A DNA stretch of 64,000 nt from Oscillospiraceae bacterium. GTDB lineage: Bacteria > Bacillota > Clostridia > Oscillospirales > UBA929. A program made the translations under genes and the position numbers. Under the pieces are notes generated by a model. That model made no database searches. It was given only the letters and a program-made list of their open reading frames with translations, and was not told where the DNA came from. Shown piece after piece: positions 15,944 through 40,268 of this stretch; position 1 is the first letter of the stretch, and each line of letters begins with the position of its first letter. The stretch covers positions 111,850 through 175,849 of the forward strand of contig WRKO01000002.1 in assembly GCA_009782215.1 (NCBI GenBank). The letters are read 5' to 3'.

Positions 15944-16396
15944 TCAGCTTTCCATCTGTTTGCCCAAAAACCCCGCGACGGTCTGGGCGAGTTTGTATTC
16001 GGTGTCCGAGTATGGCTGGCCGGTGTCGGGCAGCAGGAAGACCACGGCGCCGGAGACGTCGCCTTCGGCGACGATGGGGGCGGCGAGGCCTGCGTGATAT
16101 TTTTCCGCGCCGTCGGAGACGGGGATTTTGGGGCCGCCTTGCTTGTATTGGTAGATTTGGCGGCTCTCCATAATTTTCTCCAGCTCCTCCCCGACGCGGC
16201 GCTCCATCAAATCGCGCTGCGGCAAGCCGTGGACGGCGATGACCGCGTCGCGGTCACAGACGCAGACCATCGCGCCGGTGGTTTTCCCCAGCGTTTCGCA
16301 TAGCTGCGAGGCGAACGCCGACAGCTCGCCCATAGGGCTGTATTTTTTGAATATCACTTCTCCGTCCTTGTCGGTGTAAATCTCCAACGGGTCGCC
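15944..16396 (-). pseudogene. spoVT: spoVT 3' portion (codons 31-180 plus stop) of a split gene, fused in frame to the upstream recombinase ORF
   Basis: GDPLEIYTDKDGEVIFKKYSPMGELSAF...PIVAEGDVSGAVVF...TVAGFLGKQMES matches my recollection of B. subtilis SpoVT residues 31-178 (GDPLEIFVDRDGEVILKKYSPISELGDF...AAGFLARQMEQ). It has no start codon or RBS of its own. Confidence 0.85.
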
Positions 16397-18091
16397 GCTG
16401 CTGATAACATTGACGGCGTAGATTTTGTCCGGGTGGTTGCGGGACATTTGAAATACAGTATTCCCCTCCGTGGAGGGGTGGCACGAAGTGCCGGGGTGGT
16501 TCACATTTAACAACATATCTATATCAGCTTGCAGTTTAATCTCAATGTGGTCTTCGTAGACGAGGATTTTTTCTATCATCAGCTCCAAGTCCTGCCTGCT
16601 GAGGGCCGGCTTGTCCAGCACGTCGTTGAAGATGTCTATGGCGGTCTTGGCGATGCGGTTCGAGCGGATGACGGCGTTTCGCCGATCGGCGGTCAGCGTG
16701 ATTTGGTTTTGCAGCCCGGTGATGCGGTTCTCGGCCTCGATTTCCATTTCGGCATAGGTTTCCTCGATGACCTCCTCGGCTTCGGGGCGCTTTATGATTT
16801 CCCGTATCTTCTGCCGCTTGATGGCTTTGAGTTCCTCCCGCGCCGCGTCAAGCTGGGTTTCGAGGACGGCCAGCGTCTCGTCATTGTGTTTGACTTCACC
16901 GGCTTCCTTTTTGATTTCTGCTTCCAGCCGGGCAAGCATGTCCGCGGAATGGTCCCGCACACGCTGGACGTAGGATTTCAGCAAGCCGTCCAGCACGTCC
17001 ACCCGCGTGTGGTGGGAAGTGCAGCCCGCCAGACCGCGCTTGTGGTATGACCCGCAGGTGTAGGCGGGGCGCAGGTCGCGGCGGGACATGGAGAACATCG
17101 GGCTGCCGCAGTCGCCGCAACGGATAAAGCCGGAATAGACGTTGTCGTTTTTCCTGACGCCCCGGTAGTGGTTGGCGCCGCGCTTTTTGAGCTGCTCCTG
17201 CGCGATGGCGAAGGCGCGGTATTCGATGATAGGGTCATGGTGGTTTTCAAAGACGATGTGGTTTTCCGCGTCCACCCTGACCTCGGAGCCGTTGATGTTT
17301 TTGCGTTTGAACTTGCCCTGCCGCAGGGTGCCGATATAAAAATCGTTCCGCAGGATGCCCTCAATGGTGGCGATGCTCCACTCCGGCTTGGCGAGCCTCT
17401 TGGATTCCTCGCCGCGTTCTTCTTTGCGCGCCCGCTCGTCCATGCGCGGCGTCGGGATGTGCAGCGCGGTCAGGTGGTTCGCGATTTTTTTGTAGCCCCA
17501 GCCGTCGTTGTATAAGGCGAAGATTTTCCGCACCACCTCGGCGGCGGGGTTGTCCGCCCCGAACGCCATTGTCTTGCTGTTGGTGATGACGTAGCCGTAC
17601 GGCACGGCGCAAATCCATTTGCCGTCGGCTTGCCGCTTCTGGATGACGCTCTTGACCTTCTTGGACGCGTCGGTGACGGGCAGCTCGTTGACGAGAAAGC
17701 GGAATTGGATGGACACCCAGTCGTCATACGTCGGGAAGTCGATGCTGTCGCCGATGGAGATGATACGCACCCCGGCGTCGCGCAGGTCTTCCAGCTCGAC
17801 CAGCCCCCGGCTGTTGCGGCGGGAGAAGCGGGAGAAATCCTTGACCACCAAAATGTCAATCTTGCGTTCCATCAGAAGCGGGCGCAGGGACTGGTAGCCC
17901 TCCCGCTGCTCAAAGGTGTAGCCAGAACGGTCGCGGTCTTCGTAGAAGGAAAGGGCGGAGCCGGGGAACTTGCGCTTGACAAACTCATCGATAATCGCCT
18001 TTTGGTTTTCGATGGAGGTGTTGTCCCTGTCCATCTCCTCGTCCACGGATATGCGGCAATATCCGGCGATGCCGTATGCCTCTGCCACCAT
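15944..18091 (-). CDS. large serine recombinase; the ORF reads through its own crossover site into the spoVT 3' portion (565 aa recombinase-specific plus 150 aa SpoVT-derived)
   Basis: N-terminal resolvase domain (GYCRISVDEE...ENQ, IDILVVKDFSRFSRR), recombinase domain, zinc ribbon (CGDCGSPMF...CGSYHKRGLAGCTSHH), coiled coil, and the ...ILVYEDHIEIKLQADIDML end typical of LSRs. GGAGGTG lies before the ATG at 18091. Confidence 0.9.
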   Translation of the reverse strand: MVAEAYGIAGYCRISVDEEMDRDNTSIENQKAIIDEFVKRKFPGSALSFYEDRDRSGYTFEQREGYQSLRPLLMERKIDILVVKDFSRFSRRNSRGLVELEDLRDAGVRIISIGDSIDFPTYDDWVSIQFRFLVNELPVTDASKKVKSVIQKRQADGKWICAVPYGYVITNSKTMAFGADNPAAEVVRKIFALYNDGWGYKKIANHLTALHIPTPRMDERARKEERGEESKRLAKPEWSIATIEGILRNDFYIGTLRQGKFKRKNINGSEVRVDAENHIVFENHHDPIIEYRAFAIAQEQLKKRGANHYRGVRKNDNVYSGFIRCGDCGSPMFSMSRRDLRPAYTCGSYHKRGLAGCTSHHTRVDVLDGLLKSYVQRVRDHSADMLARLEAEIKKEAGEVKHNDETLAVLETQLDAAREELKAIKRQKIREIIKRPEAEEVIEETYAEMEIEAENRITGLQNQITLTADRRNAVIRSNRIAKTAIDIFNDVLDKPALSRQDLELMIEKILVYEDHIEIKLQADIDMLLNVNHPGTSCHPSTEGNTVFQMSRNHPDKIYAVNVISSGDPLEIYTDKDGEVIFKKYSPMGELSAFASQLCETLGKTTGAMVCVCDRDAVIAVHGLPQRDLMERRVGEELEKIMESRQIYQYKQGGPKIPVSDGAEKYHAGLAAPIVAEGDVSGAVVFLLPDTGQPYSDTEYKLAQTVAGFLGKQMES
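16368..16417 (-). other. hybrid (attR-like) serine-recombinase site: element-type arm, core GGCGACCC, spoVT arm
   Basis: The minus strand reads GCCGTCAATGTTATCAGCAGC-GGCGACCC-GTTGGAGATCTACACCGAC. The core (plus-strand 16389-16396) is identical to the core at 40179-40186. Confidence 0.75.
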
Positions 18092-18166
18092 TGCACCTCC
18101 ATTCTGTGTGGTTTATAGCAACATTGTATCATGGGGTGGGGTGGATTGCAAGGGGGGAGTTTGGGA

Positions 18167-18195
18167 TTGCATATTGTCGGAAAAATGAGTATAAT
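18167..18195 (+). promoter_or_regulatory. sigma-A-type promoter for mrr
   Basis: TTGCAT-N17-TATAAT, about 30 nt upstream of the mrr ATG. Confidence 0.55.
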
Positions 18196-18225
18196 TACAA
18201 CATCAGCGACAGAGGAGGGTTTTCA

Positions 18226-38950: not shown

Positions 38951-39961
38951 ATGACCGAAGCATCATTAACCGAAGCCATCACACGCCGGCGTTATCACGG
39001 GCTGTATCTGTCACGCCAATGCCCTGATATTGTGGATTTGTCGCGGGAGCTGCTTGGGCTTCATTGCTGGTTTCACCGGAATGTGGCGTTCTCCGCGCTG
39101 ATTCGCGGCGCGGATCTATCAGGGTGGAAGTCCGCGCTGACAAAGACATGGCTCTATCGCGGAACGCTGCACGGCGCGGCATATGACGAACTGCCTCGAT
39201 TGCTTTCCCTGCACAGGGACGGCGAATCGTGGCTGAGACGCTCTTATAGCGAGCAGATGCTGTCGGACGTCGCGGATAAGGTCGTGCGGTGCATGGAAGA
39301 CGGGGTACATTCCCGCGCCGAAATGCGGAAAATATTCGCTTACGACTATGAGCCGAAGGTGATTGAGGCTATGTTCTCGCCGTGGGGCGGTATTTTCGTT
39401 TACCTCGCGGGTCTCGGCAAGGTCGCTTTCAGGGACATGGCGAGCCGCGATTTTGACTTGATTGACGCGGAACCGGCGGGAACCAGGACGGAGGTCTTGC
39501 CTGAAATGCTCCGCAGGTACTTCAAGGCTTACGGGCCCGCGACGCTTGACGACGCGGCGTGGTTCTTCGGGTTTTGGCGGGAGGACAGAAAAATGCTGCG
39601 GGCGTTTCCGCTTGACGAGTATGACCGCTTTGAGCTTGACGGCAGGGTGTACTATCGCTGCGGAGAACCGGACGGGATGGATGATCTCCCGGAATTTAAC
39701 CTGTTGTCGGGGTTTGACCCGATTATCGTTTCCTATACGGAGAGAAGCGCCGTTTTGCCTGCCGAATACAAGCGCAGCGTCATTCTCAAATCGGGCATCT
39801 GCCTGCCGACCGTCGCGGTGAACGGCAAGGTTGCCGGGCTATGGAATATCAAGAAAGGCGAGCCTGTGGTTGAGTTTTTCAAAAAGCAGCCGAAACGGAT
39901 AGAGTCCGGCGTTCTTGACTTGGTTGACAGCATCCATTGGCATATCACGGGGAGGTTGTGA
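38951..39961 (+). CDS. winged-helix YcaQ/AlkZ-like protein (putative DNA crosslink-repair glycosylase family)
   Basis: 336 aa. Overall resemblance to the DUF1006/HTH_42 family (WLYRGTLHG..., LRRYFKAYGPATLDDAAWF). The family call is made from memory only. Confidence 0.6.
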   Translation: MTEASLTEAITRRRYHGLYLSRQCPDIVDLSRELLGLHCWFHRNVAFSALIRGADLSGWKSALTKTWLYRGTLHGAAYDELPRLLSLHRDGESWLRRSYSEQMLSDVADKVVRCMEDGVHSRAEMRKIFAYDYEPKVIEAMFSPWGGIFVYLAGLGKVAFRDMASRDFDLIDAEPAGTRTEVLPEMLRRYFKAYGPATLDDAAWFFGFWREDRKMLRAFPLDEYDRFELDGRVYYRCGEPDGMDDLPEFNLLSGFDPIIVSYTERSAVLPAEYKRSVILKSGICLPTVAVNGKVAGLWNIKKGEPVVEFFKKQPKRIESGVLDLVDSIHWHITGRL

Positions 39962-40021
39962 CGCACAGATGACGGAGGCTCTGCAGACGGAGCCCCCTAA
40001 ATCCTTCCAAGGGTACTTTCT

Positions 40022-40051
40022 GCATAGACAGACAACTCTTTGCGCAACCTA
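40022..40051 (+). promoter_or_regulatory. forespore sigma-G/sigma-F-like promoter upstream of the spoVT 5' portion
   Basis: GCATA-N18-CAACCTA, against the B. subtilis sigma-G consensus GHATR-N17/18-CATXHTA (one mismatch in the -10). It ends 37 nt before the start codon. Confidence 0.35.
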
Positions 40052-40088
40052 TGGATGAAATCCAACTCGGTAAATAGGAGGGAATCCA

Positions 40089-40268
40089 TTGAAAGCGACA
40101 GGAATTGTCAGACGGATTGACGACCTCGGACGCGTGGTCATCCCCAAGGAAATCCGCCGCACCATGCGTATCCGCGAGGGCGACCCCACGCTGACGACAT
40201 TGACGCTGTGGGAGAGGTTTTGCATGGCGATGGATGGGTTGGCGAGACGATTGGGGTTGGGTACATAA
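40089..40268 (+). pseudogene. spoVT: spoVT 5' portion (codons 1-33) running into 26 unrelated codons
   Basis: TTG start with AGGAGG 7 nt upstream. (M)KATGIVRRIDDLGRVVIPKEIRRTMRIREGDP matches the SpoVT/AbrB N-terminus almost residue for residue, then TLTTLTLWERFCMAMDGLARRLGLGT and a stop. Not in the ORF track (59 aa, TTG start). Confidence 0.85.
40158..40207 (+). other. hybrid (attL-like) serine-recombinase site: spoVT arm, core GGCGACCC, element-type arm
   Basis: The plus strand reads ACCATGCGTATCCGCGAG-GGCGACCC-CACGCTGACGACATTGACGCT. The element-type arm is an imperfect inverted repeat of the arm at 16397-16417. Confidence 0.75.

Follow-up and report, generated by a model that had tools for sequence, protein, structure and literature searches.

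Sporulation gene-intervening elements described to date all lie in mother-cell genes, a restriction that has been explained by the fate of the two cells: the mother cell dies, and the spore keeps the element (PMC4191935). Here we analyze a 64,000-nucleotide stretch of DNA from an Oscillospiraceae bacterium (GenBank assembly GCA_009782215.1, contig WRKO01000002.1, positions 111,850 to 175,849; hereafter the window), in which spoVT is divided into two intact halves lying 23.8 kb apart on opposite strands, the 3' half being fused in frame to the gene of a large serine recombinase (LSR). The interrupted gene is probably not specific to the mother cell: spoVT is a forespore gene controlled by sigmaF/sigmaG in Bacillus subtilis and Clostridioides difficile, its promoter in the window is of the forespore type, and SpoVT is required for heat-resistant spores in C. 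difficile (PMC3789822).

In B. subtilis, spsM is interrupted by SPbeta (SprA and SprB), and there, as in the window, an LSR splits a sporulation gene whose frame is restored by precise rejoining; the recombinase is produced constitutively, and the small directionality factor only during sporulation (PMC4191935, PMC5499854). SPbeta differs in that its target is a mother-cell gene, its circle is excised in the mother cell only, and it is an active phage of 134 kb, whereas the window contains a forespore gene, an inverted arrangement, and no phage. No similarity between SprB and the conserved small open reading frame (ORF) of the window, discussed below, was detected by Pfam, PHROG, or fold search. 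The skin element in sigK (SpoIVCA in B. subtilis; CD1231 with the directionality factor CD1234 in C. difficile), the paradigm for a sporulation gene rejoined in development, shares with the window an LSR at the element edge beside the 3' gene fragment (PMC5025042; bioRxiv 10.1101/2022.02.25.481979), but it is excised in a terminally differentiated mother cell and has colinear halves and a dispensable interior. The gin element in gerE of Bacillus cereus ATCC 10987 (GirC/GirX) is a minimal, non-phage element with little beyond an LSR and a small directionality factor (PMC5595907), and so resembles the stripped content of the window; it differs in its direct geometry, its excision, and its mother-cell target. 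Rejoining of gerE by inversion in B. weihenstephanensis was considered as a precedent and dropped, as gir/gin elements excise and vfbin sits in spoVFB (PMC5595907). Restoration of nif genes in Calothrix sp. NIES-4101 is a developmental reconstitution, requiring inversions as well as excisions of fragments on opposite strands (PMC11249958). It takes place in a cyanobacterium, in terminally differentiated heterocysts, with unrelated recombinases and target genes, and we consider it the closest conceptual precedent for a developmental inversion.

When attachment (att) sites are oppositely oriented, LSRs such as those of phiC31 and Bxb1 invert the DNA between them, with no topological requirement. 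In engineered switches built on these enzymes, integrase alone recombines attB with attP to give attL and attR, and integrase plus directionality factor resets the switch by inversion between the opposed sites. The logic is the one we propose below, with the difference that these devices are synthetic; to our knowledge, no natural chromosomal LSR inversion switch controls a developmental gene. Mobilizable elements of the Tn4451 type (TnpX with a Mob relaxase) are also comparable, because LSR, relaxase, and NikA/MobC genes occur together in relatives of the window's element and because the TnpX catalytic domain (2MHC) is a detectable homolog. They differ in that spoVT is not a known target of TnpX elements, that TnpX is described as working without a separate directionality factor, and that the copy in the window has no relaxase.

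The system in the window, as read here, breaks two defining features of the SPbeta/skin/gin class, with inversion in place of excision and a forespore in place of a mother-cell target. The latter, a point that the initial annotation of this DNA had passed over, is its most unusual aspect, the forespore being the germ line. Neither a spoVT-intervening element nor an inverted layout for a sporulation gene was found described in open-access papers and bioRxiv, and spoVT is not among the known intervening elements listed in a 2023 paper. To this extent the initial annotation of this DNA, which was aware of no case for spoVT or for the inverted geometry, holds for the searchable literature; the split itself is not unique, since LSR::SpoVT_C fusions are widespread in the Oscillospiraceae, usually in the direct arrangement.

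Two intact halves of spoVT

The 5' half of spoVT begins with a TTG codon that is common to the window and to the intact orthologs in the close relatives L088 and L089 (L numbers are our designations for compared loci). Its frame encodes (M)KATGIVRRIDDLGRVVIPKEIRRTMRIREGDP, with 33 of 33 residues identical to L088 and L089, and continues through 26 unrelated codons to a stop at 40266-40268 (Table 1). Homologs of these 26 codons lie 3' of the spoVT 5' half in L068 and terminate the recombinase in contigs L111, L112, and L113, in which the attachment site has the attP form, and a contig from a viral collection ends at the junction dinucleotide (discussed below); we therefore identify the 26 codons as the displaced C-terminal tail of the recombinase itself. 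The promoter lies 38 nt 5' of the start codon, and the motif occurs at an equal distance in the intact orthologs L089 and L088 and in L033. The forespore consensus applied to it is that of B. subtilis. The consensus in C. difficile is very similar (PMC3789822).

The remainder of the gene forms the end of a 715-aa ORF on the minus strand (18091-15944), the last 147 residues of which (LEIYTD...GKQMES) are colinear with SpoVT 34-180. Pfam domains in the 715-aa product are Resolvase, Recombinase, Zn_ribbon_recom, and SpoVT_C, and the 3' segment matches residues 24-177 of the B. subtilis SpoVT structure 2W1T. Joined in silico, the halves give a 180-aa SpoVT, residues 1-179 of which align to B. subtilis SpoVT (2W1T 1-177, E=7e-49); compared with intact 180-aa SpoVT proteins, coverage is 100% and identity reaches 93%. 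Precise site-specific joining, at least in silico, thus restores an intact frame, as expected of a gene-intervening element. The halves are free of defects, and the promoter, ribosome-binding site (RBS), and terminator have all been kept. Pairwise ratios of nonsynonymous to synonymous substitution (dN/dS), which are blind to recent gene death, are 0.046-0.047 between the joined spoVT and intact orthologs, compared with 0.048 between intact orthologs.

The initial annotation had read this split from the letters of the DNA, and most of what it reported was borne out: the two intact halves on opposite strands 23.8 kb apart, with both junctions now reproduced in other assemblies; the TTG at 40089 with AGGAGG 7 nt upstream, 33 SpoVT codons, and a stop at 40268; the 147-aa remainder as the tail of the recombinase ORF, evident from the sequence and from Pfam SpoVT_C; a strong terminator behind it; a promoter on the 5' half, placed as in intact orthologs; and a joined product that aligns to SpoVT over its full length.

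The recombinase and its attachment sites

The enzyme consists of an N-terminal resolvase catalytic domain, which includes the nucleophilic serine, followed by recombinase and zinc-ribbon domains, and retains all family-invariant residues, including the YxRxS motif (Y11-R13-S15), placing it among the LSRs. It matches PHROG 95, an integrase family, and its nearest solved relative is SprA/YokA of SPbeta (9DXH, E=7e-17). A Hin/Gin-type switch, which relies on a small serine invertase of ~190 aa, identical inverted sites, and an enhancer, does not fit, as the enzyme comprises 568 aa plus the tail with LSR domains and the two sites are non-identical hybrids.

The sequence GGCGACCC is common to both junctions, and the non-spoVT flanks are imperfect inverted copies of each other, the P' arm of attL mirroring the P arm of attR at 16400-16415. 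The arm motif CGTCAATGTYRTCAGC occurs exactly twice in the 64 kb (16400-16415 and 40190-40205), once per junction, where 0.01 occurrences are expected, so the resemblance of the junctions is not due to chance. We rebuilt attP and attB for the window and for four relatives in which both junctions are visible, and the reconstructed attP sites are imperfect palindromes centered on GA. That of L004 is nearly perfect (CAGCAGCGGC-GA-TCCGCTGCTG), its arms matching at 9 of 10 positions around the GA. On the basis of this palindrome, the crossover most likely falls at the GA of the Asp codon (40182-40183 on the plus strand; 16393-16392 on the minus strand). The join at the shared Gly-Asp-Pro codons in the initial annotation does restore SpoVT, and only the exact point shifts, from the end of the Pro codon to the Asp codon. 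A short attP with imperfect inverted arms, an attB with unrelated arms, and hybrid attL and attR sites together form the arrangement typical of LSRs.

Contigs in the attP form, with P and P' joined, occur in metagenomes (L110, L111, L112, and L113), and their tails are homologous to that of the window. L112 (ERZ1026957 NODE-246, 30.5 kb) encodes an intact 613-aa LSR in this form at 49-3063; a small ORF and RhuM are located upstream of it, followed by a class II aldolase-like gene, and the contig ends 48 nt past the LSR stop, so that it could represent either an excised element or a resident chromosomal attP. In L111 (OFHW01000740.1, 593-1780, minus strand), a MurF-like N-terminus is fused to the C-terminal half of an LSR with the attP form and native tail; this ORF appears to be a truncated LSR remnant joined to another gene. 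The viral-collection contig L097 (IMGVR_UViG_3300029705_005362) ends exactly at ...GTCAATGTTATCAGTAGTGGTGA, the predicted GA crossover, which may reflect an assembly-graph branch at an att site. A scan of viral contigs for the attP pattern gave no match.

The nearest relative of the window LSR is in L113 (JGI 3300042610 contig Ga0466698_114831, ~1750-1960), also in the attP form and 84% identical at the nucleotide level. A 535-aa LSR without SpoVT_C (P0037) was considered as the protein of the restored state and rejected, because this contig shows a premature stop and a decayed attP. The L113 sample also contains an intact spoVT (L089), 91% identical to that of the window.

An inverted interval of core chromosome

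The 23.8 kb between the halves is core chromosome and not an element. Its core genes include tuf-fusA-rpsG-rpsL (the str operon), secG, and groES-groEL; beyond these it encodes a mannitol dehydrogenase, a PRC-barrel protein, a sigma/DUF4367 pair, an EAL protein, an AlkZ-like protein, and the spoVT 5' half. Genes attributable to the element are the LSR, an Mrr nuclease, a 56-aa ORF, and the small 79-aa ORF, and those that look accessory are two LytTR/GHKL two-component pairs and a Big_5 surface protein. The probable cargo has a GC content of 0.49-0.53, versus ~0.58 nearby. Beyond attL follow a UDG-family gene, thrS, HD, fucI, an aldolase, and more housekeeping genes; beyond attR lies a flagellar operon, in the synteny found downstream of the intact spoVT in L089. 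Because the halves are inverted, the interval holds essential genes, and thrS lies on the far side, excision is impossible, and only inversion of 16392-40183 can rebuild spoVT. Colinear halves around a dispensable circle, the usual configuration of an intervening element, are found in L004, L033, L036, and L068 and not in the window. The window also contains neither a relaxase nor MobC, both of which its relatives have, and therefore does not represent an integrative mobilizable element.

As the source is a metagenome-assembled genome, a mis-joined contig might have produced the 23.8 kb separation and the opposed orientation of the halves. ENA contig k141_1727837 is colinear with 25846-40441 of the window with 1 mismatch, and ENA contig k141_621401 matches 5944-26504, identical save for its last 660 bp, which fall inside the variable Big_5 gene. 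Jointly the two cover 5944-40441, and a JGI contig matches 39616-41246 exactly. The break of the ENA assembly within the Big_5 gene, where the contigs overlap over 660 bp at 89% identity, leaves some room for a mis-join. Against this, each junction is spanned by contigs of other assemblies, no long inverted repeat that could cause misassembly was found at the junctions, and the direct layout would put thrS, ychF, and addAB inside an excisable element. We consider an artefact very improbable. The other assemblies come from essentially the same population and thus support the assembly rather than evolutionary persistence.

Two routes to the present order can be envisaged: a resident attP may have recombined with attB in cis, or an ordinary direct insertion may have been followed by a second inversion. 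Both predict the same gene order. Synteny with relatives does not discriminate between them, as L089 shares only the flagellar side and L090, in which tuf-fucI-aldolase are adjacent, fits both routes, and neither GC skew nor strand bias clearly dates the inversion. Whichever route was taken, the sites would still be a valid substrate for inversion.

Several other features of the region were recorded. The 925-aa Big_5 (bacterial Ig-like) surface protein is encoded at 24783-27560, and its ENA version is 89% identical over 660 bp (25846-26504); the 20 kb to the left of this divergence is identical in the ENA assembly, marking the gene as a strain-variable hotspot. LytTR response-regulator paralogs at 19833-20466 and 22198-22825 form an inverted repeat of 75-78% identity flanking a GHKL histidine kinase gene, and a second kinase gene follows. 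The longest ORF in its region, at 27579-28976 on the plus strand, has no family match and was rejected as spurious; the real gene is tuf (27636-28838, minus strand), the last member of rpsL-rpsG-fusA-tuf. An HTH_3 regulator (15636-15878, plus strand) and an LRR_5 lipoprotein-like gene (14948-15541, minus strand) separate the 3' end of spoVT from the flagellar operon; they are missing from L089 with its intact spoVT and thus look like a small insertion.

Table 1. Coordinates of features of the divided spoVT locus in the window
Feature	Position	Strand	Details	Basis
Intrinsic terminator of spoVT	~15894-15928	-	20-bp-stem hairpin then TTTTTT	dG -29 kcal/mol, z=-6.0
spoVT 3' segment (codons 34-180 + stop), fused in frame to recombinase	15944..16387	-	Codons 34-180 at 16387-15947	
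attR	16365..16420	-	P arm with arm motif 16400-16415, predicted crossover GA 16393-16392, then spoVT B' arm	
LSR proper	16388..18091	-	568 codons	Pfam, invariant residues, PHROG 95, 9DXH
Segment that would invert, between attR and attL	16392..40183		23.8 kb	Gene content
sigma-70-like promoter of recombinase	18123..18151	-	TTGCAA, 17 nt, TG-extended TACAAT	Consensus match only
Probable element cargo	18226..19384	+	Mrr-type restriction endonuclease (18226-19113), 56-aa ORF (19214-19384)	Between LSR and small ORF
Conserved 79-aa ORF, candidate recombination directionality factor	19517..19756	+		Homolog linkage to LSR
spoVT promoter, forespore-type (sigmaG/sigmaF-like)	40022..40051	+	GCATA-N18-CAACCTA	Sequence reading and ortholog comparison
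RBS and spoVT 5' segment	40076..40187	+	AGGAGG (40076-40081), 7-nt spacer, TTG 40089 to codon 33 at 40187	
attL	40160..40210	+	spoVT (B) arm, predicted crossover GA 40182-40183, P' arm with arm motif 40190-40205	
Displaced native C-terminal tail of recombinase	40188..40268	+	TLTTLTLWERFCMAMDGLARRLGLGT + stop, in frame behind spoVT 5' half	

A family of spoVT-inserted elements in the Oscillospiraceae

A scan of one genome per species returned at least 566 relatives. LSR::SpoVT_C fusions make up 119 of the 120 best protein clusters (60-100% identity), and all 80 of the best species representatives, cultured isolates included, encode full-length fusions, which are thus present in at least 80 Oscillospiraceae species. 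Hosts include Flavonifractor, Oscillibacter, Dysosmobacter, Lawsonibacter, Faecousia, Evtepia, and Angelakisella, among others. The window LSR therefore belongs to a large clade, previously unnamed and undescribed, that inserts at the conserved Gly-Asp-Pro codons (31-33) of Oscillospiraceae spoVT. Where a source name is given, as in some NCBI records, the fusions go by names such as 'stage V sporulation T C-terminal domain-containing protein', 'stage V sporulation protein T', and 'recombinase family protein'; such names hide the split, and the divided genes are easily missed in surveys of sporulation genes.

Where the 5' half could be located within 10 kb, it is upstream of the fusion on the same strand, at a distance of 4.4-9 kb (L004/L005 of Anaerotruncus massiliensis, L033, L036, and L068). 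This direct layout is the only one seen in relatives with both halves visible, and it usually surrounds a small mobilizable element. In several relatives, genes for mobilization and defense (relaxase, NikA/MobC, RhuM, and type I restriction-modification) lie upstream of the LSR; the interior of L068 instead encodes a radical-SAM enzyme and a decarboxylase-like protein. Among close relatives of the window's host, spoVT is intact in L088 and L089, and L090 has a typical family element ahead of the fusion.

For the 3' half, dN/dS across the whole family is distorted by saturated or biased synonymous sites, so that close pairs alone are informative; among close pairs in which both members have the insertion, omega is 0.03-0.16. 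When spoVT 3' halves are compared with LSR genes, L045 and L031 have close hosts and distant LSRs, and L019 and L026 show the reverse. This uncoupling of host and element divergence indicates that the elements move horizontally and have been exchanged repeatedly among related hosts.

A candidate directionality factor under a forespore-type promoter

Of 89 loci, 66 encode a homolog of the 79-aa ORF, ~80 aa in length, no more than 4 kb upstream of the LSR, and in 63 of these the two genes share a strand. The family shares the motif K.VEvWLt..E...Y.VaVF.SG..DL...T.dLL.yNR, the conserved core of which is retained in the 79-aa ORF of the window; no homolog was found next to distant LSRs. In the window the small ORF and the LSR point away from each other, as they do in L113, where another gene occupies the cargo position; this makes the divergent orientation a trait of the sub-clade and not a sign of decay.

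Upstream of the small ORF, 36 of 61 distinct regions contain a forespore-type (sigmaF/G-like) motif, G[ACT]AT[AG]-N17/18-nA[AT]HHTA, ending 15-38 nt before the start. The expectation from shuffled sequences is 0.69; the motif is absent from the opposite strand and occurs upstream of 4 of 842 other ORFs in the same loci. The -10 is usually GGAAAATA or GGAAACTA and is usually preceded by G, and a G just 5' of the -10 is the sigmaF signature in C. difficile (PMC3789822). The architecture of the motif is that of the spoVT promoters in these organisms. Based on the linkage to the LSR and the forespore-type promoter of the family, we propose that the small ORF is a putative recombination directionality factor and that the rearrangement would be timed to the forespore.

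Proposed mechanism and alternatives

We propose that in vegetative cells the LSR would be made from its sigma-70-like promoter as an LSR::SpoVT_C fusion and that the split state would be stable, since attL and attR are not recombined by an LSR acting alone. At sporulation, production of the 79-aa protein would supply the directionality factor, enabling the LSR to recombine attL with attR at the GA dinucleotide. The sites being inverted, the outcome would be an inversion with no circle: an intact spoVT under its own forespore promoter would form on the minus strand at 16 kb, and attP would come to lie beside the UDG-family gene, where the LSR would regain its native 26-aa tail. Nothing would be lost from the spore genome. 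After germination, LSR without the factor would recombine attP with attB and split spoVT again. Where the halves lie in direct orientation, as in the relatives, this series of events would release a circle in the forespore, and the circle would then have to reintegrate.

That the LSR with the 79-aa protein inverts the segment during sporulation, and that the LSR alone flips it back, has in our estimate about an even chance of being correct. The full reading is more tentative, and we put it forward as possible: a reversible germ-line inversion at each sporulation, in which spoVT would be assembled by flipping 23.8 kb of core chromosome in the forespore, str operon and groESL included, and the segment would be flipped back after germination, together with the first family of intervening elements in a forespore gene (at least 80 Oscillospiraceae species) and a new directionality factor under a sigmaF/G-type promoter. 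Whether the inversion takes place at all is the chief uncertainty of this model.

The clearest alternative is a dead end, in which direct integration was followed by an illegitimate inversion, with or without loss of cargo, leaving spoVT permanently broken in a lineage that does not need it or does not sporulate, the halves being intact because the event was recent. Several observations weigh against a working switch or in favor of this history. A single population shows the inverted layout, the two other assemblies being essentially identical in sequence, and relatives with both halves visible have the direct layout alone; the mobilization genes of the closest relatives, L113 and L090, are missing from the window. 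The promoter of the small ORF is a poor match here, with GCATA at -35 and a -10 of CAGACTG (5 of 7 positions; AAAACTG in L113 has 6 of 7), so that sporulation control is weakest exactly at this locus. The restored form did not come to light: exact look-ups of the joined SpoVT and of a 594-aa LSR with its native tail in ~15 billion proteins found neither, and the scan of metagenomes for the attP pattern, to which the attP of this strain would conform, returned three contigs, all of other lineages and none of this strain. This sub-lineage can decay, as documented by L113, whose attP lacks the central GA (AACGGC--CCTCACACTGATGACATTGAC) and whose LSR has a premature stop, giving the impression of a locked or decaying site. 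Finally, a recent loss of function would be invisible to pairwise dN/dS.

Other difficulties concern the proposed switch itself. The putative role of the small ORF is argued from conserved linkage, size, and promoter, the protein having no match in Pfam or PHROG and no significant fold match in the PDB (predicted structure with pLDDT 75). A rearrangement in the forespore would moreover be inherited and would need a return step without described precedent.

The dead end must in turn account for one breakpoint lying no more than ~12 nt beyond the stop that ends the LSR tail, with attL left complete to within a few bases of the neighboring host promoter. It must also account for an LSR, a small ORF, two att sites, and two spoVT halves that are all intact and free of defects, which favors a working switch. 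Such a history would in any case leave the sites valid for LSR-mediated inversion and is hence compatible with function. Taken as an explanation of the locus, we regard a dead end as rather unlikely, though likelier than the other alternatives. The initial annotation had seen in the intact halves a maintained rearrangement substrate rather than an old wreck; the low dN/dS and the intactness of the halves agree with this, and the claim keeps the standing of an inference, given the blindness of pairwise ratios to recent death and the lack of a restored attB/attP form among the sequences searched.

A further possibility is a stochastic on/off switch, in which the LSR would invert the segment at low frequency in both directions, independently of development, and produce sporulating and non-sporulating subpopulations in the manner of phase variation. 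In its favor, gut bacteria commonly use invertible switches, the promoter of the LSR is sigma-70-like, and the window's small-ORF promoter fits the forespore motif poorly. This explanation is improbable, however, because an LSR lacking its directionality factor is strongly directional (PMC12286644), the forespore-type promoter found across the family points to developmental control, and a single orientation is present in three assemblies.

Implications

The widespread occurrence of spoVT elements with a forespore-type promoter on an accessory gene implies either a heritable excision followed by reintegration or, in the window, a lossless inversion. If the developmental inversion proposed here is correct, it would overturn the rule that intervening elements are tolerated only in the disposable genome of the mother cell, and it would constitute a natural toggle of integrase and directionality factor acting on a chromosome. 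The small ORFs would form a new family of directionality factors for an LSR clade with a defined site of 40-50 bp, which would be useful for genome engineering. For the hosts, among them abundant gut Oscillospiraceae such as Flavonifractor, Oscillibacter, Dysosmobacter, Lawsonibacter, and Anaerotruncus, the split of spoVT would be a variable with a possible influence on sporulation and, through it, on transmission.

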